DNA of 64,000 bases from Dehalococcoidia bacterium (GCA_965202965.1 CBDBCQ010000001.1:6626-70625); one strand, 5' to 3'; shown: positions 5,168 to 45,203, counted from the stretch's first letter. The notes: a model not told the origin generated them from the sequence alone. Translations and numbers: made by a program.

Positions 5168-8100
5168 CTACATGAAGTAGAGGTCTATGACTGCGCTCAC
5201 CTCTTCCAAAGTGAGGTTGCCCTCGAAGTAGTCGTCAATGGCCGCGCTGACCTCATCGAGGTCAATGTGACCGGAGGCGTCCATATCCCACTTTTCAAGC
5301 AATGACGGTTCGCCAACGGTCACAATGATCGTGTAGGTCATCGTCGTCCCGTCCTCGGCCGTCACCGTGACGGTGATAGTGTTGTCGCCGGCTTCAAGGC
5401 TTCCGGCATCATCGGTCACCGTCGCAGCTGAATGCGTCGCACCAGCGCTGACCGTAACCATATCGACGTCGCTGCCGACCATCGCGCTGTAGTTTGTCGT
5501 GTCGGACGCGAACATCGGCATCAGGTCGATAGCCATGCCATCGCCGTCCGTCAGACTCAGTGAGGACAGACTCGCATCGTTGGACACGCGGTTCACCATA
5601 ACGGTGTAATCCATAGTCGTCCCGTCTTCAGCCGTTACCGTAACGGTGATAGTGTTTGCACCGACATCAAGGCTTATGTCGCCATCACCGGACACCGTCG
5701 CCTCCGAATGCGTCGCCGGCGCGCTGACCGAGGCCATATCGACAGCGTTTGCGACCGTTGCGCTGTAGTCCGTCATGTCGGATGCGAACATCGGCATCAG
5801 GTCAATAGCCATGCCAGCACCGTCCACCAGGCTCAGTGAGGACAGACTCGCATCGTTCGAAACTTCATCGATCTCCGTAGGTGTACCGACGAGCGACGCG
5901 GACCAGTGCCCTGCTCCGCCGCCGTGAACCGCACGCACCTGCACATCGTACGATACGTCAGCCTCAAGTCCGATAATCGTGTATCTCCGAGGACCTCCGG
6001 TCCAGATGTCGGAAACCACTGTCCAATTGCTGTCTGACTTGTCGGCTGCATCGCTTTCTATATAGCGGAGGTCATAGGAGGCTATACTGGCTCCACCGGT
6101 CTCTACCGGAGCATTCCAGATAACTGCCAGAGACCGTCCTTCCGGTGTGATGCTCGCGATAGCTGGAGCATCGGGCGGGCGGGCGCGGTTTACCCAGATG
6201 GTATAGTGTCCGGCGGCATCATTGCCGTCGCGAATGGATATCCGAAGGCTGATGACGGTTATTCCCGTATCGAGATCGACCTGGTGTCCTGCTAGCGAGC
6301 CGTCCGCGTCCGCAATGGTGCTGCCGCTCTGGTCGAGAATCTGCAGTCTGGCCTTTGGACCGTGCGTAGCGGTGAGCGTAAACCGAGACTCCCCGACAAC
6401 TGCGTCGTAGCTACTGTGATTCGAGTCGAACGCTGGCACCAGAGAGCCGGGACTTATCGTCAGTGTGCTTAGCTGGATGGAGCAAGGCGGAACGCCTAGG
6501 CTATCGAGATGGTTCTCCGGCACGTCTAGCAATTCATATGGCAAACACCCACTGAACTGATTGCCGGAGAGATTCAGCACTTCTAGATTGGTGAGGTTGC
6601 CCAGTTCCGGCGGGATAGGGCCAGTTAACTTGTTGCCGGAGAGATTCAGCACTTTTAGATTGGTGAGGTTGCCCAGTTCCGACGGGATAGGGCCAGTTAA
6701 CTTGTTGCCGGCGAGACCCAGCACTTCTAGATTGGTGAGGTTGCCCAGTTCCGGCGGGATAGGGCCACTAAGCCCATTGAACCCCAGACTCAGCATTTCT
6801 AGATTGGATGCGTTGGCTAGCTCTGGTGGAATCGGACCGCTCAACTGGTTCGCGCTCAGGAACAAATGAGACAGGTTTGGGAGTTTCCCCAACTCCGGTG
6901 GAATTGAGCCACTTAAATCGTTATGTCCGACAAACAGAGCACTTAGATTAGAAAGGTCGCCCAGTTCCGGCGGAATCGGACCGTTCAAGTTGTTGCCGCC
7001 GGCGCCCAGACTCCGTAGGTTAGAGAGGTTAGCTAGCTCTGGCGGAATCGGGCCGCCCAAATCATTGTAGTCAAGCCACAGAACAACTAGGTTCTGGAGA
7101 TTACCCAGTTCAGCGGGCAGAATGCCGGAAAGCCCTGCTTCTCGTATTTTAACTCCATATACCAGGTTGAATCCAAGTTCTACACCCTCCCAATCGTCGA
7201 TGGGAAGATCAACACTCCAGTTCAGTGACTGTTCTCCGCGCAGTGCGTCTCTGGACGCCAGCATCGCCTCACAGTCGGAGATAATGTCGTTGCCGGTGTA
7301 TCCTGACACCGCGACACCTCCAGCACACCCTGGGCTGCGAACCGCTATGCTGACCGCCAGGGAGTCCGTATCACCATCGCTGTCGGTAGCAGTGAGCACA
7401 TAGCCGGTTTCTCCCGATACGACAGCGTCCGTCGATACCTCGATACGGGAGGGCGGACCGGGAACGAAGGTTATGCCATTGCCGGGTTCGGGAGAGATTG
7501 AGTATGTCAGAGGTTCGTTGCCACCGGTTGCCAGGGGAAGGATTCGGCTGTCACTATTCCCGGCGGTAAATGTGTAGGTGACGCTTCCGACCGCAAACGC
7601 CGGATTAGTATCCTTTTCGTCATCAAGGACGTACAGCTTAACGGACCGGGGCGGGATCACACCCTCCCTACTCGCGTTGGTAGCAGTGCCGGATACCGTC
7701 ACCTCCACACTACCGGTCCGGTCGTCGTTGTCGACCGCGGTGAGCGTTACAGTGCCGGAGCTCACCGTCCGACCTGCCGGTATGGTAAGCGTCCGGTTCC
7801 TGCTGAGGGTAACGGTGGTTGCCGGTGAGACGGATACCGTGACCGTCGTGTCCTCGCTCGATGGCCTGTGCAGTGTGGCGGTGATCGTGCCGGTGCCACC
7901 CTTCTCGGAAAGCCGGTAACGCGACATCGCCAGCCCGACCCTGGGCGTTGCCGCAACGGAACGCCGGAAGTTCGCGGTTATCTCTCGTCTCTCGTTGAGG
8001 GTCCTCACTGCGTCGGCAGGTCCGTTCAGCCCAGTAGAAGTGTTGTCTACTGAAACTCCCATTGGATCGCCGCCCCAGTTTAACCTTGGATTTGAGAAGT

Positions 8101-11023: not shown

Positions 11024-14000
11024 CTAGTCGCTTCCGCCGCCACTGATGTATCCGCTGGGAACTAGGCTGGCTGCCTCCCTGACGAATATCCAGTATGCGT
11101 CGCCGATCCTCAGCGTGTTGTTCATCTGCATATCCGGATCCAGTACCGTCTGCCACTGGTTCCTGATGGTGTCGAATCCGAGCACCCTAGCCAGGTCCAG
11201 ACCGTCGTCCAGGTTCTGCAGGTAAACATCCGCGCTAACCGTGTCTCCACCAGAGCCATTGCCACTGATGTCGGTCACAGGTATCAGGTTCCAACCGGCG
11301 TACAGCGCGATCACAGGCGGCTGTATCGGCGTACCGGTTCCGGCAGCTCCGCCAGCCAGTCTCGGGATGCTAACTTCCCAATCCTGGATCGCGTCGCTGA
11401 GTACCCAGTATCCGCGGCTGCCACTGATCTCTGACAAGTCGCCCTGCCAGTCGCTGTCAAGCGTCTCACGCACTGCAACCATCCATCCACCCGGTACGAC
11501 CGGATCGTAGGTGTACACAGTCCGTACTTCAACACCAGGTCCGAATACCGATCCGATGCTGCTGTCTGCAGGCTCACCCGGCAAGCTTACCAGGTTCCAG
11601 CCCGGGTTCAGCCGGCGCTCGAACGGATCCCTGTCGCTGACCTCGAAGTCGATCTCAAGAACGTCCTCTAGCATGTTGCCAGCTACGTCCATCGCCTGGA
11701 TCTTCGCCGTGTGGTCGCCGAGCGCTACGTTCTCAAGGCTAACCAGGAATGTCTGGTCGTCCGTCGTCTTCACGCTGTCGGTCATGTCCACGCCGTCAAG
11801 CTCGAACATGGTGATTACCACGTCGTCGAAGTTGTCCTCGAGGTATTCGCTGTTCTCGTTCGTGCAGTTCGCCATCACGTAGTCGTTGTCGTCATCGTCG
11901 CGGCAGTCCGTGCTGTGGTTAACCGTGAAGTCAATCTCCACGAACAACGGGGACCTGAACTCGATGTCCGGCTCGTTGTCGGTGATCATATTGCCGCTCA
12001 CCCTTACGTTGGGCTTCGCGAGGTTGATGTCACCCTCCCAGAACACTGCGTCGTCAACGTTGACGTCACCATCTGAGTCGAAGAAGTCGGTCACGATGCT
12101 GTCCGGTGCGATGCCTTCGCTGCCAGGGTTCTCCTGCGGCGAGCGGTCAACTCCGCTGATCCGGAAGCTGTAGTAGCCGGTGTCCTTAGGCTCGGTAACT
12201 GTCACGATCCACTCGGTGTTGGATACCTTCTCCACACTATTGTTAAGCGTTCCGCCCTTTGCGGCGCTGCTGTCCTGGCAGTAGTTGTTATTGACGATCT
12301 CGCCCCTGTCGCGGGTGCCCTTCTTGTCGTCAGCGCTGCCCTTAATGTAGCAGGATGCCGTGCCCTTGGTGTCAACGCTGTCCGCGTTCACATAGGTAAC
12401 CGTAACGGTCGGGCGCGTCGCGTCCAGGCGCTCGTCGGACGTCACTACCAGTGTAACTTCATCGCCGTCACCGGCTAGGACCTGGTCCTGTGCCGTCTCA
12501 AGCGTCGAGGTTATCGACACTACCGTGAACTTAGGCGAAATCCAGTCGTCTGCCTCGTGGTCTCCGTCGTCCTGCTCGTTGCCCGCTCCGTCCTCAACAC
12601 CGTTCGGCACTATCGTGACGTCTGGCGTCTCGTCCGCTAGCAGCTCGTCTTCAAGCTCGACGAATACCGAGTTCTCAAGGTCCCGGTAGCGATCTATGTG
12701 CCGCAGGTTCTTGCTGCCTTCGGCCGCGTACCTGCCGCTGTCAGACCAATCGACGTCATCGTCGTCCGGGTTCTCGTAAACAGTTACGCTCTTGATCGAG
12801 TGACCTTCGACTACGAAGTCGTCAGCCTCTACCGTCGCCGGGTTCAGCGTCGTCAGGTCGTTGAAGATGACCTGGATGTAGTTGCGGTTGTCGTCGTACT
12901 CGTTGTCGGTCGAGTCCCAGGTCAAGCCTGTCCGAGCCTCTACGAATACCGGGTCCTCGGTGTCCACAGTGATCTCGTTAAGCTCTTCCTCGTCATCGTT
13001 TCCGTCAGGATCGTGGTACGCGCAGTTGCCCGCGTTGTCGCACACGATGAAGGTCACATAGTATGTATCGTTTTCAGTCAGGACTATCGTCGTCTCGACG
13101 TCGTAGCCGTTTTCAATCTCATCGAAGTCCTTGTCGTCCCTGATCGGAGCGAAGCCGAAGCCGCCCTCGCTCGCCACGTACTCACCGTCCTGCATCCTGC
13201 CCGGGCAGTAGAGCGAGTCATCCTCGTGGATGTGCGCCGCGAAGTTCATAACTACGTCCGTGCCCGTAGGCTGCGTTTCCGCGACCGAGCACTGGCCCAC
13301 GCCGCCTGCGTTCTTGCTGATCAGGGCAACAACCGGCGTGTAGTCGGCGTCGCCGTCAGCGTCAGGCAGGTCCTCCGGCTCAGGCAGACCGGAATGGTCA
13401 TCCGTAATCGTGAACGTGTAGTCCACGTCGGCATCGTCGAACGCGCGCCCGTCCTCAGGAGCAAAGTTGCTTACCTCAGGGGCCTCGTTCTCCACATCGA
13501 TGTTGGCACGCAGGTTGCCAAACTCGACCTCTACCTCGTCCTCTTCGTCCACCTTCAGCGCCGGCACGCCGCCGTCGGTGTGCTTGTAAACCGCTGCGTC
13601 GCCAGGAGTCGAGTCACTGGAGAGCTCGACCAGCATAAGCGCTGCCACGAACTCGTTCTCGTCATCCGCGCTCCTGTATGCCTGCAGCTTCAGTGAGTCG
13701 TCAGCAGAGTCGCTGTTGACGTTCACTATCACGCACTGGTTGCCGTTGCCGCAACTCGGGTTCGGGGACTCGGCGGTAACAGCTATACGCAGAACCGTGC
13801 CCCAGTTCGCCCACTCGGTCTCAACGAAGTTCATCGGGCTGCTGCCGTCTGTCGCCGGCAGGTCTGCCGGGCGCTCAGGGACTGCAGCGCTGTATGTGGT
13901 CTTCGTGTTCGACAGCGCGCTCATCGGGTTGCCCATGGCCGTACCCGGAACCGGGTTTGCCTTGCTTACGTCAAGCGTGCTTACCGAGTCTTCCTCGCCT

Positions 14001-17000
14001 GTAACCGTAATTCTCACGGATGCGGTCGCTTCGCGAGAGCCGTCGCTGGCAACTACCGTCACCGCGCAGCCGTCGGAGCCGCAAGGAGTCATCGCATTGT
14101 CGGCGTCAAGAGACTCGAGAGTCATCAGGTCGCCGGTATCGGAAATCATGAACGACTTGGCGTCCGCGCCGCGCAGGCTGTAGCTGACCGCATCGCCGTC
14201 GGCGTCGCTCGCCGAGTAGTTGGCAAGCATCGTGCCGCGCGCCGTGTTCTCCGCAACACTCAAGCTAGTTGCAGGTGCGCTGTCAAACACCGGATCGTTG
14301 TCGTTCACATTGCTCAGGTTGACCGTCAGAAGCAGCGTGTCATTCAGACCATCGGGGTCGTTCACTTCCACGTGCACTCTGGCATCGTACCCGGCATCTT
14401 CATAGTCGAGGCCCGGGCCGTCGCTGCGCACATGCAGCTCACCGCTCCATACCTCAACACCCTTAACCATCTCGCTGTCAGTGTTCTGAATCTCGAACAG
14501 GTCCTGAGACTGTCCTTGACGCAGGCTGAAGGTAAGGTCATCTTCGTCCTCGTCAGTAGCCGTGAAGGTGAATATCACAGCGACGCTGCCGGTATTCTCC
14601 GGTATCGTCGTCACTGCGGCGTCACCCAGCGGGCTCGTGAACTGCGGCGCCTCGTTGGCGTTCAGCACATGGACTGTGACGTCCATCTCGTCCGTCAGGC
14701 CGTCTTCGTCCGTCGCCCTCACCGTGAAGGAGTGGCTGCCGGCAGCCTCCGTGTCGAGCGCGCCGCTAACCGTCAGCGCACCGGTTGTGGGATGCACCCG
14801 GAACGGCGGCTTGCCCGCGCTGATCGAGTAGGTAATCGTTGTGCCCCCGTCCTCGTCCTCAGCGTTGATGCTGATAGGCGGGTCAGTGGCCGCCGGGCCA
14901 TCCTGGTCAGCCGGCTTCTCAAGAACCGGGTCACCGGCCTGCGCGGTCTCGTACACCCACGGGGTGCCCGCTATCGCGTCAAGTACCGGCGCTTCTTCAA
15001 CGTCCGTTACCGTCACGCGCACTGAAATCAGGCCCGCGAGGTCGCCGGCGGCGTCGTTCGCGTTCACCAGGAACGCAGGGTTGTCGCCGTCCTCGAAGTT
15101 CGGGGCGTTCAGAACTGTGACACTGCCGTCATTGGCGACTGCGTAGTTCGTGTTACCGCCGTCAACACCGCTCTCGATGCTGTAGGAGGTAGCGCTATCC
15201 ACAATTCCGGCAAGCGAGCAGCCCTCGCTGCCGTCCTGCATGCAGACGGTGCCATTCTCAGCAACCGTCACGCCTACGAAGTTGGAGGTGATCGCCGGCC
15301 GCGGCGCCACCGTTACCGAAACCGTGACAGTGATTGTCGCGTCCGGGTCGTCGTTCCAGCCGTCGCTAGCGGTCACCGTTATGGTGCTGGGGGTCGTATT
15401 ACCCGGCGCGGTGGGAAGATAAGTCAGAAGCAACTTGTCTTCGACGCTATGCACGATGTGCGATGGGTTGTTCGAAACTTCGAAGGTTACTGTGTTGCCG
15501 TCATCGTCACTCACCAGGTCCTGAAGGTCGGCAAGCTCCTGCGGCATATTGTCCGCCGCGGTCACCGTCGTCGAAAGCGCGAGAGTGCCGTCAGCGGCAT
15601 CACCGGCGAGCGCCACTGGCGCGTTCGCATCCACCGTAACGGTGGCGCTGATGTTCCTGTCATTCGCGGTTATGCCGTCAGAAACCGTAATCATGAAGGT
15701 GTGGGTGAGGTCGCCTCCGTCTCCATCCGCGATGTCAGCACTGCCGACACTTATCATGCCGCTGCTGCTGTTGATAGAGTACAGAGCCGAATCACCGCCT
15801 GACAGCGAGTAAGTCAGCACGTCGCCGTCATTGGCGTCGACGCCCGCGCTGGCATCGCCAACTGCGGTTCCAGCATCAACAAGAACGCCGGTAGCGTCAT
15901 TATTTTCCATAATGGTCGCCGTGAATGTGGCGGGCACCGTCGGCGCCATGTTCGACGCGGTTACGGTTATGCTCACTGCCTTCTTGACCGTCCTGTTGGC
16001 AAGACCCGCGTCACCGCTCACGGTAAGTTCGAGGTCGAGAGTTCCAACAGACAGGGAACCACCCTTGAACGTGAGCGTCATGTCGTCGTCATTGACTGAG
16101 AACATTTCGCTGCCGGTACCGGTCAGGATGCCGTCCAGGTACTCACCCGAAATGCCGCCACTGACATCGAAGTCACCTATAAGAGTACCCGCAGCTGTGC
16201 TCTGCGCTATCGTGAACTCATTATCAGACGTGATGTCGAGGGCTGCCCGAGAGTTTATGTCACCGGTAAGGGTAACGAGAACGCTGTCGTCAGCGGCATC
16301 GTCGCCCAGATCGTATAGCAACGCAATGCTAATTGCTTGCGTACCGCTCAACGCGGACGCCCCGGAGTTCATCACGAGCAACTGGAATTTGCCGCTTCCT
16401 TCTGCAGTCTCCTTGACCTGGAAGTCGCCAACCACACCATTATTCTCGATGCTGGCTGGCGAGCCGGTAACGTTACCGGTAACATCCCACTCGAGAGGAT
16501 TGCTCGCTATCGGATGACCCACAGCCGAAACGACGGCGCCCTTAAGGGCCTTCTCTGGAACGACGTCGAAAGCGAGACCACCAACCTCAACAGGAGCTGG
16601 CCCAACGTTAGTCACCGTAATGGTGACGTCTATCGCGTCACTTTCGCCGGCGGGGTCCGCAGCCGTCAGAGTGACCTGATAGGCGTTATCGCCATTGGCG
16701 TCTGACGGATTCTCATAGTCAGGTGACTCGTTGAAGGAGAGCACGCCATCCGAGATAGAGAAGTCGCCCGCGTCCGTGCCAGAAATCGACCACGTAACCG
16801 TGTCTCCATCAGGATCCGTCGCAGTGTAGGTCGCAACGGCACCTGTGCCGTTCTCGGCGTAGTCAACCGCGGCATCACCCGCAACCGTCGGTGCGGAGTT
16901 GGTCGTGACCGTTACAGTCACCGGACCGCCTACACCGTAGGAGGTATCATCCCCAGCACTGCTTAGAGTGCCACTAAAGTCAAAGGTGTCCTCTGTAGTC

Positions 17001-17350
17001 GTAGCCGTGACCTGGTAGGAGATCGAAGTTGCTCCTATGAGGTTGAAAACCAGCACGCCCTGGGCCACATCGGACGACGCGCTGAGAGTGGCTGTACCAA
17101 CAGAGGTGAGAGACCCATCCACATAGGTGAACTCAGGTGGTATCGTCTCCGTCACCCTGCCTGGCGCTGCAACGTTCGCAAGGGCGATCGTCACCGTCAC
17201 CGTCCCGCCTGGCTCTACTCGCGCTGGATCAAAGGACCGAGTGGCACTGGGATCACTTGTCTGTGCTGCCAAGGGAGACGAACTCGACATGAGCGTCAAG
17301 CCGCCAACCACGCTCAGCAGCAGTGCCGCCAAAATTATTAGTCTATTCAA
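11024..17350 (-). CDS. Giant secreted cadherin-repeat surface protein (2108 aa) with an unassigned C-terminal GWNL-repeat domain
   Basis: Signal peptide MNRLIILAALLLSVVGGLTLMSSSSPLAAQT. Many cadherin-type modules are present (e.g. TATDPDGDTVTWSISGTDAGDFSI, LSNVNDNDPVFDS, VLNANEAPQFTSP, VTDVEEAPVLD). The C terminus carries GWNLVSLPG and GWNLIPVTD. TTG start with an AAAGGAGAGAGG SD. No EF-hand tail. Confidence 0.85.
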   Translation of the reverse strand: MNRLIILAALLLSVVGGLTLMSSSSPLAAQTSDPSATRSFDPARVEPGGTVTVTIALANVAAPGRVTETIPPEFTYVDGSLTSVGTATLSASSDVAQGVLVFNLIGATSISYQVTATTTEDTFDFSGTLSSAGDDTSYGVGGPVTVTVTTNSAPTVAGDAAVDYAENGTGAVATYTATDPDGDTVTWSISGTDAGDFSISDGVLSFNESPDYENPSDANGDNAYQVTLTAADPAGESDAIDVTITVTNVGPAPVEVGGLAFDVVPEKALKGAVVSAVGHPIASNPLEWDVTGNVTGSPASIENNGVVGDFQVKETAEGSGKFQLLVMNSGASALSGTQAISIALLYDLGDDAADDSVLVTLTGDINSRAALDITSDNEFTIAQSTAAGTLIGDFDVSGGISGEYLDGILTGTGSEMFSVNDDDMTLTFKGGSLSVGTLDLELTVSGDAGLANRTVKKAVSITVTASNMAPTVPATFTATIMENNDATGVLVDAGTAVGDASAGVDANDGDVLTYSLSGGDSALYSINSSSGMISVGSADIADGDGGDLTHTFMITVSDGITANDRNISATVTVDANAPVALAGDAADGTLALSTTVTAADNMPQELADLQDLVSDDDGNTVTFEVSNNPSHIVHSVEDKLLLTYLPTAPGNTTPSTITVTASDGWNDDPDATITVTVSVTVAPRPAITSNFVGVTVAENGTVCMQDGSEGCSLAGIVDSATSYSIESGVDGGNTNYAVANDGSVTVLNAPNFEDGDNPAFLVNANDAAGDLAGLISVRVTVTDVEEAPVLDAIAGTPWVYETAQAGDPVLEKPADQDGPAATDPPISINAEDEDGGTTITYSISAGKPPFRVHPTTGALTVSGALDTEAAGSHSFTVRATDEDGLTDEMDVTVHVLNANEAPQFTSPLGDAAVTTIPENTGSVAVIFTFTATDEDEDDLTFSLRQGQSQDLFEIQNTDSEMVKGVEVWSGELHVRSDGPGLDYEDAGYDARVHVEVNDPDGLNDTLLLTVNLSNVNDNDPVFDSAPATSLSVAENTARGTMLANYSASDADGDAVSYSLRGADAKSFMISDTGDLMTLESLDADNAMTPCGSDGCAVTVVASDGSREATASVRITVTGEEDSVSTLDVSKANPVPGTAMGNPMSALSNTKTTYSAAVPERPADLPATDGSSPMNFVETEWANWGTVLRIAVTAESPNPSCGNGNQCVIVNVNSDSADDSLKLQAYRSADDENEFVAALMLVELSSDSTPGDAAVYKHTDGGVPALKVDEEDEVEVEFGNLRANIDVENEAPEVSNFAPEDGRAFDDADVDYTFTITDDHSGLPEPEDLPDADGDADYTPVVALISKNAGGVGQCSVAETQPTGTDVVMNFAAHIHEDDSLYCPGRMQDGEYVASEGGFGFAPIRDDKDFDEIENGYDVETTIVLTENDTYYVTFIVCDNAGNCAYHDPDGNDDEEELNEITVDTEDPVFVEARTGLTWDSTDNEYDDNRNYIQVIFNDLTTLNPATVEADDFVVEGHSIKSVTVYENPDDDDVDWSDSGRYAAEGSKNLRHIDRYRDLENSVFVELEDELLADETPDVTIVPNGVEDGAGNEQDDGDHEADDWISPKFTVVSITSTLETAQDQVLAGDGDEVTLVVTSDERLDATRPTVTVTYVNADSVDTKGTASCYIKGSADDKKGTRDRGEIVNNNYCQDSSAAKGGTLNNSVEKVSNTEWIVTVTEPKDTGYYSFRISGVDRSPQENPGSEGIAPDSIVTDFFDSDGDVNVDDAVFWEGDINLAKPNVRVSGNMITDNEPDIEFRSPLFVEIDFTVNHSTDCRDDDDNDYVMANCTNENSEYLEDNFDDVVITMFELDGVDMTDSVKTTDDQTFLVSLENVALGDHTAKIQAMDVAGNMLEDVLEIDFEVSDRDPFERRLNPGWNLVSLPGEPADSSIGSVFGPGVEVRTVYTYDPVVPGGWMVAVRETLDSDWQGDLSEISGSRGYWVLSDAIQDWEVSIPRLAGGAAGTGTPIQPPVIALYAGWNLIPVTDISGNGSGGDTVSADVYLQNLDDGLDLARVLGFDTIRNQWQTVLDPDMQMNNTLRIGDAYWIFVREAASLVPSGYISGGGSD

Positions 17351-17504: not shown

Positions 17505-20500
17505 CTACATGAAGTATTCATCTATGACTTCGCTCACCTCTTCCAAAGTGAGGTTGCCGTCGAAGTAGTCGTCAATGGCCGCGCTGACCTCATCGAGGTC
17601 AATGTGACCGGAGTCGTCCACGTCGTACCTGTCCTTCAGTGACGGCTCGCCAACGGTCACAATGATCGTGTAGGTCATCGTCGTCCCGTCCTCGGCCGTT
17701 ACCGTGACGGTGATAGTGTTGTCGCCGGCTTCAAGGCTTCCGGCATCATCGGTCACCGTCGCAGCTGAATGCGTCGCCCCAGCGCTGACCGTAACCATAT
17801 CGACGTCGCTGCCGACCCTCGCGCTGTAGTTTGTCGTGTCGGATGCGAACATCGGCATCAGGTCGATAGCCATGCCATCACCGTCCATCAGGCTCAGTGA
17901 GGACAGACTCGCGTCGTTGGACACGCGGTTCACCATAACGGTGTAATCCATAGTCGTCCCGTCTTCAGCCGTTACCGTGACGGTGATAGTGTTCGCGCCA
18001 ACATCAAGGCTTACGTCACCTACATCACCGGACACCGTCGCCTCCGAATGCGCCGCCGTCGCGCTGACCGAGGCCATATCGACGTCATTTGCAACCATCG
18101 CGCTGTAGTCTGTCGTGTCGGATGCGAACATCGGCATCAGGTCGATAGCCATGCCATCGCCGTCCACCAAGCTCAGTGAGGACAGACTCGCGTCGTTGGA
18201 CACGCGGGTCACCCTGACCGTGTAGTCCATCGTCATCTCGTCTTCGGCCGTTACCGTGACGGTGATAGTGTTTGCGCCGACATCAAGGCTTATGTCACCA
18301 ACATCACCGGACACCATCGCGGCCGAATGAGCCGCCATCGCGCTGACCGTCACCATATCGACAGCATTGGCGACACTGGCGTAGTACATACCGACATCGG
18401 GCATGAAGCCCATTATCGGATTGTCAGCATAAACCTGGCCCACTACCGCCTTAGCCTCATCGCTGAGACCGTCGTACATAGCGCAGTAAGGGCTGGTCAT
18501 ATCATCCATCAGGTCGGCCCTGTCCACCATGTCATGCATCGCCGCCCTGTCATTCATCGCCGGGCAGTCCAGCGTGTCCCAGTGGGCCGCGAAACCAGCA
18601 AAAAGGGTGATATCCATGCCGTCGCTGTCCGTCAGGCTCAGCGAGGACAGGCTCGCGTCCATGCTGGCCTCGGCGGCACGCGTCACCTTGACGGTGTAGC
18701 AATCGATATCATCGTGGCGAGCGGCAGCGGCAGCGCTGCAATCATTAGTGCCTGCTGTGATAGCGGTTGCGTCAACGGCCTCCGGCCTGACTTGCACCGT
18801 TATAGTCTTCTCTCGGCCGGCGGCAAGTTCAATCTGGTGTCCGTCCATGTCCATATCATCGTCTGCCGGCGTAATCGTGATTCCGCTCTGCGCGCCGAGA
18901 TGAGTCGCCATCACGGTCACAGTGGTCGTCTCCGTGCTGTACGCGGCAGCAGCCGTGTATGCCGTCGTATCAGACGCGAAATCAGGCGTAAGTGTCGCGC
19001 CGCTCAGCTCCAAGCTCGAAAGCGTAGCATCCTTAGATCTGCTTAGATTCTGGCGGTACACCTTTGCGGTGTAGGTCTCTGTGGACGCGGCCGGGTCTTC
19101 GGCCGTAACCACTACCATAATCGTCACCTCTTCACCCGCCGCCAACTCGATTTCGTGTGCGGGCGTGTTCGGGTTCGCGTCAGCAGGCTCTATAACATAA
19201 TCTGCGCCAAACTCATCAGTCGGCTCTACTACCACATTAATCGTGCGAATACGATAGCCCACATCCGGGTCAGAGTCGTCAAGCAGGTTTCCTCCGCCAG
19301 CACCAAGCGTGGTAGTAGGCGCACCACTAGCGTCCTCAAACCTGAATACTGACAGAGTCGCATCAGTTTCAAGATTGGCGCGCTCGCGATAGACAGTAAT
19401 TTCATAAGTCTTGATTTGGTCCGCCGCGCCGGAGCCGGCCTCTGAGGTCACACACACACTAACGGTTGTATCAGTCCCAGCACTGCCGAGTGTGACATCG
19501 TCGCCTTCATCAGTGGGGCATTCCGTCGCACCAGCAGCGACGGCGGCGTCAGCCACCGCGACCATTACGCCGCCTGCGTCGTCAGCCGGAGTGTAAGCAA
19601 CGGTTATCTCGTCAACATCGCTCCCGACCCTCGCATCGTATTTCACTCTGCTCGACATGAAAGCGGGAGACAGCGCAATCGCGTTCTCATCCGAGTCCAT
19701 GAGACTCAGAGCGGACAGATTGGCGTCTTCGCTCAGAGTCGCGTTCTGGCGATACACAGTGAACGTGTAATCTTTGGTGGTAACTCCGTCTTCAGCAGTC
19801 ACCGTCACAGTAATAGTCGTCTTCTCGCCGGCCTCCAAAGCAATCTGTTGACCTTCGGTGCCGGAATCCTCGTCCTCGCTAGGATCTATTGTATCGGTCG
19901 CCCCGTTAGCAGCACGCGTGGCAGCCGCATCAAAGGTGATATGGGTAGTGCTGTTGTTTGCTACAGCGGAAGTGTTGGTCACAGAAAGCGCCGTGCCAAC
20001 CCATGCAGCACCCGAACCCACGGGAGTCGCGGTTATTGATGCAAGCGTCGCATCGGCGGAAGGATTCGCCCTCACGCGGTATACAGTGATTTCATATTCC
20101 TGGGTTGGTGTGGTAGCCTCCGGGGTCACTGTCAGCGTGATTGTTGTTGAGCTCCCGGCAGCAGCCAGCGTGAAATCTTCACCACACTCATTAATCGTAG
20201 TGTCTGTTTGCGCGGGTGTAGTAGCAATTGCGACAGCCGCGGCACCTGCTATGTCCACCGTGTTGCAGGAAACCGTTACCTCACTAACATCGCTTCCGAC
20301 TCTAGCACTGTAACTTGTCGTGTCCCTATGGAATGCACGATTCAGCGCTACTCCGCCCAGGCCCAGGCTGGACAGTCTGTTTTCAGCACTCAGGGTGGAA
20401 CGATTGCGATACACGCGGACCGTGTAAGTCTTCGTCGACGCAGGATCTTCAGCCGTAACCATCACGCTGAAAGTTGTCTGGCGCCCTTCCCTCAAAGCAA

Positions 20501-21825: not shown

Positions 21826-23136
21826 CTAAGCGAAGTAGAGGTCTATGACAATGCTCACCTCGGGTAGGGTGAGTTTGTCGGGGTCTCCTTCATCGCGGAA
21901 GTAGTCATCGATGGCCGTGCTGACCTCGGATAGGTCTATCTGGCTGGATTCATCCGCATCGTACCTGTCAAGCAGTTCATCGGCTGTCTGCGGCGGTTGG
22001 GGCGGCGGCGTGGGAACCGACGACACGGACGGATGAGGCATTAGCATTCCATTGGCGACCACATCCCATTCAAAGAAATCCTTATTGTCCGCACTATGCA
22101 CAACCACATCGTTGAATCTGTCGATGAGGGCATTGTTCGCTCCGTTGCCAACCATGAACTGGTGTAAGTCGTCGGTTATCTGATAATCACTGTCCACTTC
22201 TTCAAGGAAATCTTTGAATTTAGATCCGAATTCAAGGAACTCGTCACACGAATAGAGATAATTCGCCTGCTCTACCCGATTACTCACCATATAGTTTCTG
22301 GAATACTCGTATGCCTTTCTCTTCAGATCAATACGGCCTATCAGCGCTTCCTCCAAACTCTCACTCGATGACAGCAAATTATGATACTGCGTTTCAGGTT
22401 CGGTTTCATGGTACTTTTGACTAGTCCAGTCGTCCATTCTATATCCGCCATTGGGTAGGTCTGAAGCCACGAAATACCTCGTATGCTCGCAGAAATTGGC
22501 CAGGTCAGCGAAACTTCCCTTGTTGCACGGGCCGCCCATGTCCACTACTCCCAGAGGCTTCCCCAATGATTGACTCCATGATTTCAGAAATTCGTTGGCG
22601 TCGGCGGGTTTCAATTGCCCACCAAACAACTTGCCCCCAGGTCCGCCATGTCCGCTGTACATCAAGTGGTGATCTGAACTCGGATGCCGACTCACCAGAT
22701 ATGAAGCGAAATCTGAGAATGCGGATTTCAGGAAATCACTTCTCTCATCGGTCCACATCTGCGGCATATCGGTGTATTTTTTTACCAGGAATTGCTCCCT
22801 GTAAGCAATCTTTTCTTCATCCGTCATGCGGTGAGGAATCCAATCGTAGTCATTTGGAAACTCGTAGAGATGAACAGAAGCGGTTTCCTCCCATATTGCT
22901 GCTTCATAGAATTTGAGAGTTTCGCTCTCCTTCAGGATAACGGCTTGAGTCCATCCACCCGTTGAGGCATAAGGCATCCAATCTTCAGTCACCCGCACTA
23001 CCCTGAGCATCACATTAGGCGGTGTGGACGTAACGCCGGTCTGCGCTGTGGCAGACTTGTTGTTTGCCAGCGTCGCGAACAGCATCGCCATTGCAAAGAC
23101 GGTGGCAAGAAAGGTTAGGGTGGTTTTGGAACTCAT
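21826..23136 (-). CDS. Secreted protein, possible clan-CD (clostripain/C11-like) cysteine peptidase, with a C-terminal EF-hand/dockerin-like tail
   Basis: Signal peptide ...AMLFATLANNKSATAQTG. A candidate His-Gly (LMYSGHGGPG) and a candidate Cys (VVDMGGPCNKGS) lie about 40 aa apart, as in C11-type dyads. The tail is LLDRYDADESSQIDLSEVSTAIDDYFRDEGDPDKLTLPEVSIVIDLYFA. The peptidase assignment is weak. Confidence 0.55.
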   Translation of the reverse strand: MSSKTTLTFLATVFAMAMLFATLANNKSATAQTGVTSTPPNVMLRVVRVTEDWMPYASTGGWTQAVILKESETLKFYEAAIWEETASVHLYEFPNDYDWIPHRMTDEEKIAYREQFLVKKYTDMPQMWTDERSDFLKSAFSDFASYLVSRHPSSDHHLMYSGHGGPGGKLFGGQLKPADANEFLKSWSQSLGKPLGVVDMGGPCNKGSFADLANFCEHTRYFVASDLPNGGYRMDDWTSQKYHETEPETQYHNLLSSSESLEEALIGRIDLKRKAYEYSRNYMVSNRVEQANYLYSCDEFLEFGSKFKDFLEEVDSDYQITDDLHQFMVGNGANNALIDRFNDVVVHSADNKDFFEWDVVANGMLMPHPSVSSVPTPPPQPPQTADELLDRYDADESSQIDLSEVSTAIDDYFRDEGDPDKLTLPEVSIVIDLYFA

Positions 23137-23852
23137 GGAGGGCTACTTCCTGTCAGGTCTATCCTTCGGCAAAGTCAGGGACCACGCTTTCGGCGCTGAT
23201 GATAAAAGAAGACGCAGGGATTGCAGTGATGCGCTACTACGGGGGTGCGGGTGTCTGCACTCTACACTCCATTCTGACCTTCCTCCATGTCGGTCTCCTT
23301 ACAGGCCTTACAGAAATGAAAATACCCAGTCACATTTAACCGGGTAATTGTCGTCGTAGTACCGGGTGATCTATGTCAAGATTCGTCGTGCCCTGTACTT
23401 GGGAAAAGAGTAGCGTCCCTTAGAGTATCCTTGTTGAATGCCAAGCTTTTTGGCGGAGATTAGGAATAAGTGATTAATACGGATTTCGGGGGCCAAAGCG
23501 TCCCTTGATGTGCTACGGTGTCAGATGTGGCAGCGACTTCCGTATTGCAGCCACCATCGCCACACTCCCGGGCTTCACTCGCTGTCGTAGACGCTAGCAC
23601 AGGCGCCGTAGCTCACTTTCGTGCCGTATCACTAACTGACTGGAGACACAAGTAGAGGGCACTCCGTACAGAGCCTCGTCCTCCTCTGATCGCCCGATTA
23701 TCTCGCTTTTTGCTGCTGTCCCGCGGCCAAGGTGCCAGACCAACCAGGGAGGTCGACTCCTCACTGTCCCAACTGCCCAGTTCGGGATGCACCCATCCTC
23801 ACTAGCCACCGTTACATCAAACCCATCTACTCTTCTATGTGGACTACTATCT

Positions 23853-24830
23853 TTAACCGAAGTAAAGGTCTATGACAGTGCTTACCTCGACTAAGGTGAG
23901 TTGCCCGTCGAAGTAGTCATCGATGGCCGTGCTGACCTCGGAGAGATCGATGTTGCCGTCGCCATCTGCGTCGTACCTGTCAAGTAGCTCAGCGGCTAGC
24001 TGCCCAGAAGCCGAGCAGTCTGGGCCGGTGTCGGCATGGTAGCGGCTTGAAATACTGTTGAGCCAGACTTCAAAAGCTTCGTCAACCGGCACACAGAGTC
24101 CTGCATTCCCAGAGAAAGTAAACAATTCAAGCTCTGTGAGATTGGTGAGGCTGTGGGGTATTGTGCCCGTCAATTCGTTGTCCGACAGAGCCAACCTCGT
24201 CAGGCTCGACAGGTTGCCCAATTCCCTCGGTATTGTGCCCGTCAATTCGTTGCCCCACAGATATAACCTCGTCAGGTTCGGCAGGTTGCCCAGTTCTTTC
24301 GGTATCGCTCCCGTCAGTTCGTTGTCTCCAAGATCCAACCACGTCAGGCTCGACAGGTTGCCCAGTTCTCCCGGTATCGTGCCCGTCAGTTCGTTGTCTG
24401 CAAGATCCAACTCATCCAGGTTCGACAGGTTGCCCAGTTCTTTCGGTATTGTGCCTGTCATACTGTTGTCATCAAGATGCAATGTCGTCAGGTTCGACAG
24501 GTTGCCCAGTTCTTCCGGTATTGTGCCCGTCAAATTATTCCCATGGAAAATTAGTCCCGTAACACGCCCTGAGGCATCCGTATCTACGCCATACCATTCG
24601 TTGAGTGGGACATCGTCGTTCAGCCAGTTTGTGTTGTTTCGCCAGTTCTCACCGTTAGCGGCATTGTAAAGGGTGACGAGGGCTGCTCTATCGGCGTCAG
24701 GGGTAGGAGGCGTATGCGCGGCGGCAGGCTCCGAGGTCGCTGTAAAGAAGAGGAAGGTTGCCACCAATGCGGCGACAAGTAGGATTAGCGCGGTTTTAGT
24801 ATATATTTGGTGATTACGGGCAAATTGCAT
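23853..24830 (-). CDS. Membrane/secreted plant-type LRR protein with a C-terminal EF-hand/dockerin-like tail
   Basis: Start preferred at MQFARNHQIYTKTALILLVAALVATFLFF (TM segment); the ORF track extends to 24914 through a tail remnant. The cap is ALVTLYNAANGENWRNNTNWL...WYGV, followed by 6 repeats of L.GTIP.ELGNLS.L..L.L..N.LTG. The tail is LLDRYDADGDGNIDLSEVSTAIDDYFDGQLTLVEVSTVIDLYFG. Confidence 0.8.
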   Translation of the reverse strand: MQFARNHQIYTKTALILLVAALVATFLFFTATSEPAAAHTPPTPDADRAALVTLYNAANGENWRNNTNWLNDDVPLNEWYGVDTDASGRVTGLIFHGNNLTGTIPEELGNLSNLTTLHLDDNSMTGTIPKELGNLSNLDELDLADNELTGTIPGELGNLSSLTWLDLGDNELTGAIPKELGNLPNLTRLYLWGNELTGTIPRELGNLSSLTRLALSDNELTGTIPHSLTNLTELELFTFSGNAGLCVPVDEAFEVWLNSISSRYHADTGPDCSASGQLAAELLDRYDADGDGNIDLSEVSTAIDDYFDGQLTLVEVSTVIDLYFG

Positions 24831-24877
24831 AGGGCTTCTCTTTCTTAAGGCTGCGGGCAAGTCTCTCGTGGTCCATA

Positions 24878-24960
24878 TTTCTATCTGAAAGTAGAGGTCT
24901 ATAATAGTATTCACCTGAATGTGAGTTACCCGTATGAAGTGGTCGTCAATAACCTGCTGG
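24878..24960 (-). pseudogene. Degenerate remnant of an EF-hand/dockerin-like tail coding segment
   Basis: The minus strand reads ...QVIDDHFIRVTHIQVNTIIDLYFQ, compared with AIDDYFDGQLTLVEVSTVIDLYFG. The nucleotide alignment to 23856-23935 is recognisable (agtagaggtctat...gtgagtt.cccgt..gaagt.gtc.tc.at). Confidence 0.6.
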
Positions 24961-43649: not shown

Positions 43650-43735
43650 TGTCGTTCCGCATTTGAGACCTCTTTAATTTCTTCCTCTTAAAAGTAAGAA
43701 ATGTTTTCTGTTCTATTTTGGTTCCCATCTCTAAC
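43650..43735. repeat. AT-rich repeat element, copy A
   Basis: ...GCATTTGAGACCTCTTTAATTTCTTCCTCTTAAAAGTAAGAAATGTTTTCTG... is shared with 46700-46790 and 63668-63760. Confidence 0.8.
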
Positions 43736-45203
43736 TGAAGTAGAGGTCTATGACAATGCTTACCTCGGATAGAGTGAGTTTATCGGGGTCTCCCTCATCG
43801 CGGAAGAAGTCATCGATGGCCATGCTGACCTCGGAGAGGTCTATCTGGCCGGACTCGTCGGCGTCGTACCTGTCAAGCAGTTCGCCACCAGAATCAGTGG
43901 GTGCAAAACCAAATTGCGGGAATAGGTCATCAGAAGGCCATTGGGAGACTTCACGAATCCCGTTCCACATCAGCCTGTCTACAGCCAGACCGAAGTCGCC
44001 CTGTTTAGGCCGCGAGTTGAACAACGCGGCCCAGGCGAAGCCGTGATGAGTTCTCACCAAGAGAGAGGAGGTACCTGGTTGACTGCCACTGTGCCACCAA
44101 TTGGCATCGCCGCCGGCAGGTTTTACCAGCCAACCCATTCCATAGAAATAGGAACTGTCCTCCCAGAGCGGTGGCTCGGGGCGGGACACCATCTCCTGTA
44201 CAGTGGCAGGGTTCAGCACTGAGGGAGGCCTGCTCCCATCAATGGATGTGACAAACCGCATCAAGTCAATGGCCGACGCTATCCAGCCTCCGACGGAGTC
44301 CCGTCCCTGCAGGTAAAACCCGCCGTAGGGCCACGGCACCCGATCAGGAGTCTCGGGCATGACGGAATACGCCAGGCTCTGGCCAGGGTAGCCGTAGTAA
44401 TTAACTTCGTCCTCTGCCCTTTCCTCAGGTAAGGTGCCTCCGATTCTTATGCCGGTGATCCCCATAGGCCCCAGGACCCGTTCCTTCACGTACTCTTCGT
44501 ATGACTGCCCCGTTTTCTCTTCTATGACCCGTCCCAGCAGACAATATCCAAAATTGGAGTAGGCGAACTTGGTGCCAGGGTCGAAGTCCAGTGGCTGGCC
44601 CAGCATGAATTGAATGACGTCCCGGCAGGAAACTGGCTTCTGTACGCCAAGCTCCCTCTGAATCCTATGTGGAATCCACATTGGGTCGTAGCTCTTGTTT
44701 CTGTCCCAGCCGCCCGTATGCAGCAGCAGGTGCAGCACCGTGATCTCGTCCAATCGAGGGTCCCTCGTAGCTCCCTCAGGAGGTTGGAATTCCTTGAGTA
44801 TCTCGAATACTCTCTCTTCCAAATCCAGCAGATCCTCCTCAACCAGTTGTAGCACGGCGACGGCGGTGATTGGCTTCGAGATGCTAGCGATTCGGAAGAG
44901 GGAGTCGGGCTTAACAGGATCGTCCCCTTCAATGTCTGCCAGACCGTAGCCCTTGACGAACAGCAGTTGACCATCTTTGACTATGGCGATAGATGCTCCC
45001 GGGACCTTCCATTGCTCCAAAAAGCTTGGAATAAGCCTGTCGAACACGACCTCGACATCCGTAACAGGTGTAGCCCCTTCCGAGGCTGTAGTTGAAGGTA
45101 GTGCAAGCATACCTACTACTACCAACAGTACTATGCCTACGGCTGACAGGAAGGTAGCCGTGAGTTTCCTGATCCTGCTGGCCGCACTCCGTCTGTATGA
45201 CAA
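43731..45203 (-). CDS. Secreted beta-lactamase-fold serine hydrolase (class C / esterase / DD-peptidase type) with a C-terminal EF-hand/dockerin-like tail
   Basis: N-terminal TM/signal segment. Motifs are SxxK (ASISKPIT), YxN (YSNFGY) and HSG (WWHSGSQPG). The tail is LLDRYDADESGQIDLSEVSMAIDDFFRDEGDPDKLTLSEVSIVIDLYFS. Confidence 0.85.
   Translation of the reverse strand: MSYRRSAASRIRKLTATFLSAVGIVLLVVVGMLALPSTTASEGATPVTDVEVVFDRLIPSFLEQWKVPGASIAIVKDGQLLFVKGYGLADIEGDDPVKPDSLFRIASISKPITAVAVLQLVEEDLLDLEERVFEILKEFQPPEGATRDPRLDEITVLHLLLHTGGWDRNKSYDPMWIPHRIQRELGVQKPVSCRDVIQFMLGQPLDFDPGTKFAYSNFGYCLLGRVIEEKTGQSYEEYVKERVLGPMGITGIRIGGTLPEERAEDEVNYYGYPGQSLAYSVMPETPDRVPWPYGGFYLQGRDSVGGWIASAIDLMRFVTSIDGSRPPSVLNPATVQEMVSRPEPPLWEDSSYFYGMGWLVKPAGGDANWWHSGSQPGTSSLLVRTHHGFAWAALFNSRPKQGDFGLAVDRLMWNGIREVSQWPSDDLFPQFGFAPTDSGGELLDRYDADESGQIDLSEVSMAIDDFFRDEGDPDKLTLSEVSIVIDLYFS

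Follow-up and report, generated by a model that had tools for sequence, protein, structure and literature searches.

Six minus-strand genes in the window, the 64,000-nucleotide stretch of DNA that we analyzed from a marine Dehalococcoidia bacterium of the SAR202 type, end in a common module of 47–54 amino acids, as determined by ORF translation and a six-frame motif scan. The module is an autonomous extracellular calcium-binding domain of 45–50 residues, predicted to act in a calcium-dependent manner. The function that we tentatively assign to it is docking, which would make it an analogue of the dockerins that lies outside the dockerin family and engages a putative receptor in the presence of calcium. 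A dockerin-like role had been proposed in the initial annotation and is still the best reading; we infer docking from sequence conservation, the calcium-loop signature, a three-helix model, internal duplication, co-variation, the extracellular context, the taxonomic range, and a slot that the module shares with dockerins.

The tail-bearing genes lie at 5168–9307, 17505–21518, 21826–23136, 23853–24914, 43731–45203, and 57544–61755. In all six the module forms the extreme C terminus of the protein, with a single residue between the last YF and the stop codon. When the six tails were aligned, 25 of the 49 profile positions were invariant and the mean column identity was 75%. Searching this profile against the six-frame translation of the window returned precisely the six tails, at 93–101 bits (domain E 1e-28 to 1e-30), and besides these and a partial relic no further copy scored better than E = 3. 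The claim that six ORFs with different bodies end in one sequence is therefore confirmed by translation, motif scan, and profile.

Table 1. Positions in the window of the EF-hand tails, of two carrier genes, and of the candidate receptors.
Feature	Coordinates	Strand	Evidence
EF-hand tail of metallopeptidase-LRR-fn3-Cadherin-like protein (gene 5168–9307)	5171..5311	(-)	96.9 bits
EF-hand tail of protein with 11 Cadherin-like repeats (gene 17505–21518)	17508..17648	(-)	94.8 bits
EF-hand tail, long-turn variant (RDEGDPDK), of C11-like cysteine peptidase	21829..21990	(-)	95.5 bits
EF-hand tail of LRR protein	23856..24002	(-)	98.7 bits
EF-hand tail, long-turn variant, of beta-lactamase-fold hydrolase (gene 43731–45203)	43734..43892	(-)	93.1 bits
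EF-hand tail of metallopeptidase-LRR protein (gene 57544–61755)	57547..57693	(-)	101.4 bits
Decayed relic, 3' half of a seventh tail (IDDHFIRVTHIQVNTIIDLYF)	24885..24950	(-)	HMM positions 27–48, E 0.02–0.12
Secreted, putative clostripain/C11-like cysteine peptidase without Pfam model	21826..23136	(-)	AF2 model, Foldseek, invariant motifs
Secreted LRR protein carrier	23853..24830	(-)	Pfam LRR_8, LRR_1, LRR_4; ATG start probable at 24830
Candidate receptor: 1958-aa protein with fn3-like repeats, C-terminal TM helix and poly-Arg anchor	47132..53008	(+)	Translation
Candidate receptor: 2108-aa secreted cadherin/Ig-repeat protein without tail	11024..17350	(-)	Pfam Cadherin, Big_9, He_PIG

Pfam analysis bore out the carrier bodies listed by the initial annotation. 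Two carriers (5168–9307 and 57544–61755) contain a reprolysin-type metallopeptidase domain and LRRs, to which 5168–9307 adds fn3 and Cadherin-like domains; eleven Cadherin-like repeats are found in 17505–21518 and a beta-lactamase fold in 43731–45203. All six carriers had also been credited with N-terminal signal or transmembrane segments, and each of the six translations directly shows a signal-like hydrophobic segment with an AxA-like site behind it. The 436-residue protein encoded by 21826–23136 had no match in the Pfam search. It had been described as a possible cysteine peptidase, an assignment supported by its AF2 model (pLDDT 84.9), which Foldseek matched to the C11 structures 6n9j, 6mzo, and 9cip with E 5e-9 to 1e-6 and a probability of 1.00. 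A search found 245 homologues of this protein, and its His (SGHGGPGG; His163) and Cys (GGPCNKG; Cys204) motifs are invariant in 46 homologues. The predicted clan CD fold, together with the catalytic His-Cys dyad, places the protein in peptidase family C11, as a distant relative because the sequence search gave no Pfam C11 match. A Pro-rich linker precedes its tail. Among homologues of the peptidase body, Dockerin_1 (Pfam) or two-loop dockerin-like modules directly follow a common '...NGMLMP' end, and further homologues carry T9SS tails, LTD, Big_1, or LRR at that slot; in one homologue (P0288) the EF-hand module is found N-terminally. The slot common to the tail and the dockerins is compatible with docking and also with other accessory functions of any kind.

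Residue frequencies were determined for the predicted calcium loop in 66 non-redundant representatives (<70% identity), the same set being used for the co-variation counts below. Asp is found at position 1 in 65/66, Asp or Asn at position 3 in 65/66, Asp, Asn, or Ser at position 5 in 63/66, Gly at position 6 in 51/66, Ile at position 8 in 60/66, and Glu at position 12 in 66/66. These frequencies agree with the earlier proposal that the tail loop fits the canonical 12-residue EF-hand calcium loop, and the module, with the canonical ligands at positions 1, 3, 5, and 12, Gly6, Ile8, and a helix on each side, classes as an EF-hand. An AF2 model built on an alignment headed by the tail of gene 57544–61755 (pLDDT 89) has three helices, at residues 9–16, 26–37, and 43–54. 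In the predicted architecture an E helix (ELLDRY) leads into the loop (DxDxSGxIDLxE) and the F helix (EVSxAIDDYF), followed, after a turn of 3–8 residues, by a third helix (LTLxEVSxVIDLYF). Self-alignment of the tail gave 45.2% identity at an offset of 17, compared to 3–11% at the other offsets within 10–24. Judged by this alignment, the loop end and F helix recur as the third helix, an internal duplicate whose loop is truncated and degenerate; this second copy lacks loop positions 1–4 and keeps an equivalent of Glu12 in only 41/66 members. The description of the module as half a dockerin should accordingly be replaced by that of an internally duplicated unit, whose sequence groups with EF-hands and not with Dockerin_1.

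The two duplicated helices co-vary. Positions 24 and 41 are identical in 42 of the 66 members compared to 9.2 expected (z 12, with a shuffle control that ignores sequence kinship), and the matches involve seven residue types (S, F, I, L, V, N, and Y). Values of z 9 and z 8 were obtained for positions 20/37 and 28/45, respectively, under the same kinship-blind control. The three pairs form an i, i+4, i+8 stripe, corresponding to 10, 14, and 18 in loop numbering. Such near-symmetry of the two helices, subject here to the same property of the control, is a trait of type I dockerins. The six tails of the window represent a single subtype, with L/S/D at positions 10, 14, and 18. Instead of forming an exposed surface for recognition, the stripe could reflect packing of the two helices against each other.

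The initial annotation regarded the module as part of a candidate undescribed system, and the comparison with curated families shows that the module has no curated model as a family. Pfam EF-hand models matched five of the six tails at 13.6–22.4 bits (E 1e-4 to 5e-2), below the gathering cut-offs of 25–25.9 that a few multi-copy relatives pass at 1e-8, and the remaining tail had no EF-hand match in the Pfam search; matches to EF-hand_7 (E 1e-3 to 0.1) covered the first unit only. Across 33 diverse modules, EF-hand_6 matched 32 and EF-hand_1 matched 30, and in the PDB the tail profile picked out proteins with canonical EF-hands, at about 1e-6. The NCBIfam sorting signals gave no match to the tails (the best, at E 0.0025, was the XopAW EF-hand effector and is noise), and a literature search found no description of the module. 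Dockerin_1 (PF00404) matched none of the six tails at E<=10 and one of the 33 diverse modules, at E 0.04. When aligned by hhalign with the CelS dockerin (the sequence of 1DAQ/2MTE), the tail gave only 14 aligned loop columns and a probability of 2%; the dockerin-like modules of the C11-like homologues gave 67% (E 5e-5) over 25 columns, a weak link. Foldseek analysis of the 55-residue tail model against the PDB yielded no significant neighbour (best E 1.5), and none of the 50 matches listed was a dockerin.

The tail resembles type I dockerins, both cellulosomal and non-cellulosomal, in being a small, EF-hand-derived calcium module, mostly C-terminal on secreted enzymes, with an internal 'loop plus helix' duplication in which equivalent positions of both helices keep the same residues; the aromatic residue before the loop Asp and the slot in the C11-like peptidase family are also held in common. 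It differs in having one canonical calcium loop whereas dockerins have two, in tandem segments that each comprise a complete 12-residue loop and a helix, the second loop of the tail being incomplete. Its repeat period is 17 compared to about 22, most members have an E helix ahead of the loop, and its helices are linked by the 3–8 residue turn rather than by a linker and second loop. With canonical EF-hands (PF00036, PF13405, PF13202, PF13499), those of secreted bacterial proteins included, the tail shares the helix-loop-helix and the full DxDxDGxIxxxE signature, and it superposes locally on ALG-2 (0.9 A over 29 residues). It does not, however, constitute an EF-hand pair (PF13499), for in the tail three helices and a single functional loop take the place of four paired helices, its second unit being a truncated copy with a degenerate loop, and it serves as a terminal appendage of large extracellular multidomain proteins, not as a sensor or buffer.

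A profile search of 1.84 billion proteins returned 932 matches, part of them generic EF-hand proteins, and all eight reference-genome loci with the module belong to Dehalococcoidia/SAR202; the module is thus conserved well beyond the contig. It is not always C-terminal. Of 112 proteins, 90 have it at the very C-terminal end, with 1–5 residues behind the final YF, and 22 have it elsewhere. Some modules are N-terminal, right behind the signal peptide (e.g. P0064, P0145, and P0288), others are internal (P0054, P0070, and P0077), including modules between cadherin repeats, and P0022 and P0023 contain tandem triplets, with three distinct subtypes in identical order in both. These positions indicate that the module is an autonomous extracellular domain and not a sorting tag, and so do not support the alternative raised in the initial annotation. 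The domains of 56 carriers include Cadherin (21/56) and Cadherin-like (19/56), the others being Ig-like, LRR, S8, M28, trypsin-like, and CAP. Signal-like N termini were present in 26 of the 56, and most of the remainder begin within repeat domains, as would truncated gene calls. Between three tail pairs dS is 0.3–1.65 and dN/dS is 0.13–0.41, which indicates, at the level of sequence, that the tails are not recent duplicates and have been under long-term selection; the dS values and the homologues found elsewhere argue against a very recent duplication confined to the contig. DNA homology between unrelated carriers ends at the module boundary, being restricted for the tails of 21826–23136 and 43731–45203 to the tail and about 20 nt. 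A 792-nt block, 94.6% identical, is shared by the tail region of gene 5168–9307 and the 3' end of 17505–21518 and extends ~190 nt beyond the stop.

Two large proteins of the window, named as scaffold candidates in the initial annotation, were considered as candidate receptors. The protein of 47132–53008 shows many weak fn3 matches, and its gene lies between the tail genes at 43731 and 57544; a homologue with 79% identity adjoins two tail genes in the relative L003. The protein of 11024–17350, which gave cadherin matches in the PDB, has homologues that are 88.6% identical in L003 and 71.6% identical in L009 (SAR202 bin90), and in each of the three genomes the gene lies immediately downstream of one that encodes a tail (3/3). 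No cohesin was detected by Pfam in the large proteins of the window or by PDB matches of 11024–17350 and 47132–53008. Over 15 related loci, no non-carrier neighbour recurred except the homologues of 11024–17350 (two relatives), and no conserved processing enzyme was found beside the module.

Seawater contains about 10 mM Ca2+. Outside the cell, in seawater, calcium would load the loop of a docking module of this type and its three helices would fold compactly. The two duplicated, antiparallel helices would then present identical residues twice (loop numbering 10, 14, and 18), and this pseudo-symmetric face may serve as a protein-protein docking surface, through which peptidases, the beta-lactamase-fold hydrolase, and cadherin and LRR adhesins would all be tethered to one shared receptor at the surface of Dehalococcoidia/SAR202 cells. 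SAR202 genomes have been reported without peptidoglycan synthesis genes (PMC6306507), and wall-based anchoring would therefore not be open to such a cell. A bolder extension, which we regard as rather unlikely, is that peptidoglycan-less Dehalococcoidia/SAR202 possess their own cohesin-independent surface assembly, in which '1.5 EF-hand' subtypes plug enzymes and adhesins onto a repeat scaffold such as 47132–53008 or 11024–17350. This would amount to a programmable extracellular complex, cellulosome-like but separately evolved from EF-hands, with specificity subtypes set by the paired residues on the two duplicated helices and with a scaffold that is membrane-anchored or secreted.

EF-hands usually work in pairs, and odd EF-hands dimerize, as does EF5 of penta-EF-hand proteins. 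Each module has a single canonical loop, and the unpaired EF-hands of different carriers might therefore pair in the presence of calcium, resulting in a surface mesh of adhesins and enzymes that needs no separate receptor. We consider such self-association unlikely. It would fit the clustering of six carriers of one subtype (L/S/D) within 64 kb and the fact that no receptor was found in the large proteins of the window or in the related loci, and tandem triplets of different subtypes could serve as multivalent connectors; on the other hand, the AF2 monomer is confidently closed, the third helix being predicted to fill the place of the missing partner, and retention at the cell would need at least one anchored carrier, whereas no membrane anchor past the N-terminal signal segment was seen in the 11 non-C-terminal carriers inspected. 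To much the same degree improbable is a calcium-triggered folding or stability cap that would be unfolded in the cytoplasm, fold on export, shield the ends of repeat proteins, and bind nothing, like RTX caps. Strictly conserved calcium ligands, a mostly terminal position, and carriers that are for the most part long cadherin-type repeat proteins, themselves calcium users, point in this direction, and RTX blocks with a C-terminal cap (T1SS) likewise give giant adhesins and enzymes a calcium element, located toward the C-terminal end, that would fold only extracellularly. RTX blocks, however, are GGxGxD beta-roll nonapeptides on proteins without an N-terminal signal peptide, whereas the tail is helical with an EF-hand loop and all six window carriers have signal-like N termini. 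Pro/Thr-rich linkers also join the module to globular enzymes (the C11-like peptidase and the beta-lactamase fold) that are not expected to need a cap, within one body family it can be found at either terminus, distinct subtypes occur in tandem triplets, and concerted change of the same stripe on both helices would be unexpected for a mere cap.

More doubtful still is attachment to something other than a bacterial protein, in which case the calcium-loaded module would bind an anionic surface polymer, a mineral, or the matrix of a host such as a sponge. The very acidic composition of the tail (about 12 Asp/Glu per about 47 residues), the adhesin-like, 'eukaryote-like' repeat proteins among the carriers, and the occurrence of the module in L009, by its record name probably a sponge-metagenome bin, lend themselves to this possibility. 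Against it, a helical module of 45 residues has little room for a ligand pocket, and diversification of subtypes at paired positions of the helices is what protein-protein specificity typically shows. Least probable, and in our view very unlikely, is a sorting or secretion tag, recognized and perhaps removed by a dedicated export or attachment machinery. Like the C-terminal sorting domains (T9SS Por_Secre_tail PF18962, PEP-CTERM, LPXTG, GlyGly-CTERM, PGF-CTERM), the tail is a short element found on many unrelated secreted proteins, with many paralogues of unrelated bodies in one genome; it is mostly at the extreme C terminus, a few residues from the stop, and T9SS tails occupy the same slot in the C11-like homologues. 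It is helical, however, and not a beta-sandwich, is predicted to bind calcium, and at its end, ...IDLYF-x, lacks a hydrophobic span, a TM helix, and a basic cluster. Neither a curated sorting-signal model nor an obligatory C-terminal position applies to a module that also occurs N-terminally behind a signal peptide, internally, and in tandem, and no processing gene is associated with it in the 15 loci. Sec-type N-terminal signal-like segments are, moreover, already present in all six window carriers and in at least 26 of the 56 others.

The relic of a seventh tail is 78% identical at the DNA level to the tail of gene 57544–61755 over 69 nt (E 1e-5). The peptide IIDLYFQ, which had been read at the 5' end of the LRR gene, belongs to this relic instead. 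The start of the LRR gene is probably ATG 24830 rather than GTG 24914, because the homologue P0025 starts MQFARSHQ; a homologue in L003 is 81% identical to the LRR protein.

In a six-frame translation of the window, a six-tail profile had exactly six full-length matches (93–101 bits, E 1e-28 to 1e-30), bearing out the claim of the initial annotation that six ORFs end in one common C-terminal sequence. The alignment of the tails is invariant at 25 of its 49 profile positions, and in all six the final YF is followed by a single residue and the stop codon. Based on Pfam, the bodies of the carriers are mutually unrelated apart from the two metallopeptidase-LRR genes. Each of the six carriers begins with a hydrophobic signal-like segment when read directly from the sequence, in agreement with the N-terminal signal or transmembrane segments proposed for them. 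A decayed relic of a seventh tail lies just upstream of, and in frame with, the LRR gene and shares 78% DNA identity with the tail of the carrier at 57544–61755; it points to a carrier once present upstream and since lost, or to a scar left by recombination.

Coordinates of the tail carriers and of other features in the window and in two related loci
Feature	Coordinates	Strand	Basis
Tail carrier, reprolysin-type metallopeptidase with LRR, fn3 and Cadherin-like domains	5168-9307	minus	Pfam
Tail carrier, eleven Cadherin-like repeats	17505-21518	minus	Pfam
Tail carrier, 436-aa protein, C11-like by model	21826-23136	minus	no Pfam match
Tail carrier, LRR protein	23853-24914 (true start probably the ATG at 24830)	minus	Pfam
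Tail carrier, beta-lactamase fold	43731-45203	minus	Pfam
Tail carrier, reprolysin-type metallopeptidase with LRR	57544-61755	minus	Pfam
Decayed relic, 3' half of a seventh tail, IDDHFIRVTHIQVNTIIDLYF	~24885-24950	minus	partial profile match
792-nt block, two copies	5108-5900; 17445-18240	minus	94.6% identity
Repeat of ~35-41 nt, three copies	43671-43712; 46722-46755; 63677-63717		88-90% identity
TnpB/IS605 OrfB-type ORF	54590-55774		Pfam OrfB_IS605 and Cas12f1-like_TNB
TnpB/IS605 OrfB-type ORFs	9349-10725; 30802-32067; 33040-33552; 33721-34998; 41533-42777		similarity
Tail-less giant, fn3 repeats, membrane-anchored	47132-53008
Tail-less giant of 2108 aa, cadherin/Ig repeats	11024-17350	minus
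Homologue of 11024-17350 in OZ241923.1	14520-20180
Homologue of 11024-17350 in SAR202 bin90	1451-6499

The tails fall into pairs, designated here by the first coordinates of their genes: 5168/17505 (94.6% DNA identity over 792 nt, including approximately 190 nt past the stop codon), 23853/57544 (89% over 354 nt), and 21826/43731 (89.6% over 173 nt, tail only). Between the pairs DNA similarity is 77–85% and ends at the module boundary, synonymous divergence is 0.3–1.65, and dN/dS is 0.13–0.41. These data indicate that the module has been under long purifying selection and has been transferred as a whole from one body to another. The initial annotation had considered that the tails might be confined to this contig as products of recent duplication; such an origin is ruled out by a synonymous divergence reaching 1.65 and by the wide conservation of the module. 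The 792-nt block shared by the first pair, situated at the 3' ends of otherwise different genes, indicates that the sequence was recently duplicated or gene-converted. This pair also has the highest dN/dS of all pairs within the tail, at 0.81.

The module lies outside Pfam Dockerin_1, to which the tails gave no match in a Pfam scan, and reaches EF-hand families only below threshold (13.6–22.4 bits versus cut-offs of approximately 25). An NCBIfam scan of the tails gave no match, including none to a sorting-signal model, and neither database has a model dedicated to the family; literature searches turned up nothing relevant on the motif, or on EF-hand or dockerin modules in SAR202 or sponge symbionts. 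A profile search of the PDB recovered canonical EF-hand proteins at about 1e-6, over the first half of the module only. The AF2 model computed from 24 aligned tails (pLDDT 89) contains three helices, arranged as an E helix (9–16), the 12-residue loop, an F helix (26–37), a five-residue turn, and a third helix (43–54). Foldseek comparison of this model with the PDB yielded no significant match because the query is too short; EF-hand proteins top the non-significant list, with ALG-2 superposing at 0.9 Å over 29 residues, and the matches listed for this short query include no dockerin. We class the module as EF-hand-derived and, putatively, of docking type. A T1SS/RTX signal was rejected as a reading, given the signal-like segments at the N termini of the carriers and the helical fold of the tail.

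Residue frequencies were determined from 66 representatives with less than 70% identity to each other. The canonical EF-hand loop proposed from the window was confirmed, its calcium ligands being essentially invariant (numbered from the first Asp of the loop: D1 in 65/66, D/N3 in 65/66, D/N/S5 in 63/66, G6 in 51/66, I8 in 60/66, and E12 in 66/66). The description of the module as half a dockerin with one calcium loop holds for the single canonical loop but not for the half, as the module is itself an internally duplicated unit, with 45.2% identity between its halves at offset 17 versus 3–11% at other offsets (10–24). The duplicated sequences are SGxIDLxEVSxAIDDYF and DGxLTLxEVSxVIDLYF. The second half lacks loop positions 1–4 and keeps the equivalent of Glu12 in 41 of the 66 representatives, from which we infer one calcium site per module.

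At E≤1e-3 the six-tail profile matched 932 cluster representatives in a set of 1.84 billion proteins, a number that includes generic EF-hand proteins; 80 of these matched at 1e-10 or better, and the family is numerous enough for a curated profile. Among the proteins inspected, 39 align through the loop only and are generic multi-EF-hand proteins, and 112 contain a near full-length module, located at the extreme C terminus in 90. In other homologues, designated by P-numbers, the module is N-terminal, directly after the signal peptide (P0064, P0145, P0106, P0123, P0148, P0154, P0157, and P0288), or internal, between cadherin repeats (P0054, P0070, and P0077). Two different proteins, P0022 and P0023, end in triplets of modules comprising three subtypes in identical order (R/V/L, L/S/D, and K/L/D at loop positions 10, 14, and 18), the pattern expected of a multi-specificity adaptor. 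The domains of 56 C-terminal carriers are all of extracellular kinds, with Cadherin domains in 21, Cadherin-like domains in 19, and Ig-like, LRR, S8, M28, trypsin-like, GSDH, or CAP domains in the remainder. There is good support for predicted calcium binding by the tail, for its location outside the cell, and for its autonomy as a module. All eight loci confirmed in 185,579 reference genomes belong to Dehalococcoidia MAGs or SAR202, a taxonomic range that is a lower bound because a single narrow sequence pattern was scanned; one NCBI family member carries a Chloroflexota label, and a metagenome scan with an unspecific pattern gave at least five loci. SAR202/Dehalococcoidia, of which few or no members have been cultivated, abound in sponges and the deep ocean. 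The tail family is clearly delimited, occurs abundantly in this important lineage, and can be tested directly.

Additional information came from the carrier at 21826–23136, annotated initially as a possible cysteine peptidase. The AF2 model of its body (pLDDT 84.9) matches C11/clostripain peptidases (Foldseek E 5e-9), supporting that assignment, and no aligned homologue departs from the His motif (SGHGGPGG) or the Cys motif (GGPCNKG); the body is predicted to be a distant C11/clostripain-like cysteine peptidase. It has 245 matches, with 47–68% identity among the aligned set, and no Pfam model. Immediately following the shared end '...NGMLMP', the homologues bear Pfam Dockerin_1 or two-loop dockerin-like modules (DFNGDG...DLDGNG...), or else T9SS tails, LTD, Big_1, or LRR; one homologue, P0288, has the EF-hand tail module at its N terminus instead. 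This common slot indicates that the tail module is exchangeable with targeting or docking modules. The C11-like body family, being large and joined to many targeting modules, merits a family model of its own. In hhalign comparisons the tail profile aligned with the homologues' dockerin-like modules at 67% probability (E 5e-5, 25 columns including the aromatic residue preceding the loop) and with the CelS dockerin at 2% probability, over the loop alone. By this profile comparison the module is at most distantly related to dockerins. Outside cellulosomes, dockerin-like modules whose function is unknown have reportedly been described before.

The two helices of the module change together. Equivalent residues were equal at profile (HMM) positions 24/41 (loop 14) in 42 of 66 representatives compared to 9.2 expected (z 12), at 20/37 (loop 10) in 42 compared to 15.9 (z 9), and at 28/45 (loop 18) in 46 compared to 26.9 (z 8), the expectations being derived from shuffling, which ignores kinship between the sequences. 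Seven types of residue pair occur at HMM 24/41 (S/S, F/F, I/I, L/L, V/V, N/N, and Y/Y), and the three pairs of positions form an i, i+4, i+8 stripe beside hydrophobic core positions. In dockerins the recognition residues are duplicated at positions 10/11 and 17/18 of each segment, this being the basis of the dual binding mode, and the joint change of the two helices resembles that duplication. Alternatively, the stripe could represent a packing contact between the two helices. The sole systematic asymmetry is at HMM 29, which is Asp in 63/66, the equivalent HMM 46 being mostly Leu; the two positions have the same residue in 0/66. This Asp could cap a helix, act as a second metal ligand, or make contact with a partner.

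Pfam and PDB comparison revealed no cohesin in the large proteins of the window. Across the window and 15 related loci, no non-carrier neighbor recurred except for transposases, Uma2, and homologues of the cadherin/Ig giant. One cluster in the close relative OZ241923.1 contains homologues of both tail-less giants (79% identical for the fn3-repeat protein and 88.6% for the cadherin/Ig protein) along with an LRR gene with tail (81% identical) and a second tail gene; in SAR202 bin90 the cadherin/Ig giant has a homologue of 71.6% identity, placed after a tail gene. In each of three genomes, this giant or its homologue lies immediately downstream of a tail gene and is much better conserved than the adjoining tail carriers. 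Based on these neighborhoods, both giants stay candidate receptors of the tail, the association being weak.

We tentatively favor, at slightly less than even weight, a role for the tail as a calcium-dependent docking module working like a dockerin, because of the paired change of the helices, the subtype triplets, the slot shared with dockerins, and the host context. In regard to the host, SAR202 genomes are reported to be without peptidoglycan synthesis genes (PMC6306507), such that wall-based anchoring would be unavailable. Pairing of EF-hands from tail to tail is an unlikely explanation, and we consider it equally unlikely that the tail is a calcium-triggered stability cap, in which case the finding would amount to no more than a new subfamily of EF-hands. 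That the tail binds a non-protein ligand or one from the host is less probable still. The initial annotation also raised a sorting tag; the module is at the C terminus in most carriers, but its N-terminal, internal, and tandem occurrences and the lack of a match to NCBIfam sorting models make this role very improbable. A dedicated docking module would provide a concrete, testable handle on the surface retention of large adhesins and hydrolases in SAR202-type cells, in the form of a peptide of approximately 47 residues whose ligand signature is clear and whose candidate receptors make up a finite list in the genomes of complete relatives. A docking pair of half dockerin size with natural specificity subtypes could also serve protein assembly engineering.

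A word-indexed protein search with the tail profiles returned only proteins of 33–96 aa. In two ENA long-read loci (L001 and L002, 3x and 6x coverage) apparent frameshifts break up the carrier gene, so that the tail shows up as an orphan mini-ORF. The other short matches may also be frameshift fragments, and if so, such data would overstate the number of small EF-hand proteins.

Rfam and tRNA scans of the window gave no matches. One copy of the 35–41-nt repeat is downstream of the stop codon of the beta-lactamase-fold gene and the other two are intergenic; the repeat could serve as a terminator or mark the end of a mobile element. At least six TnpB-type ORFs are scattered among the surface-protein genes of the window, and TnpB, resolvase, and Uma2 genes are also present in the related loci.
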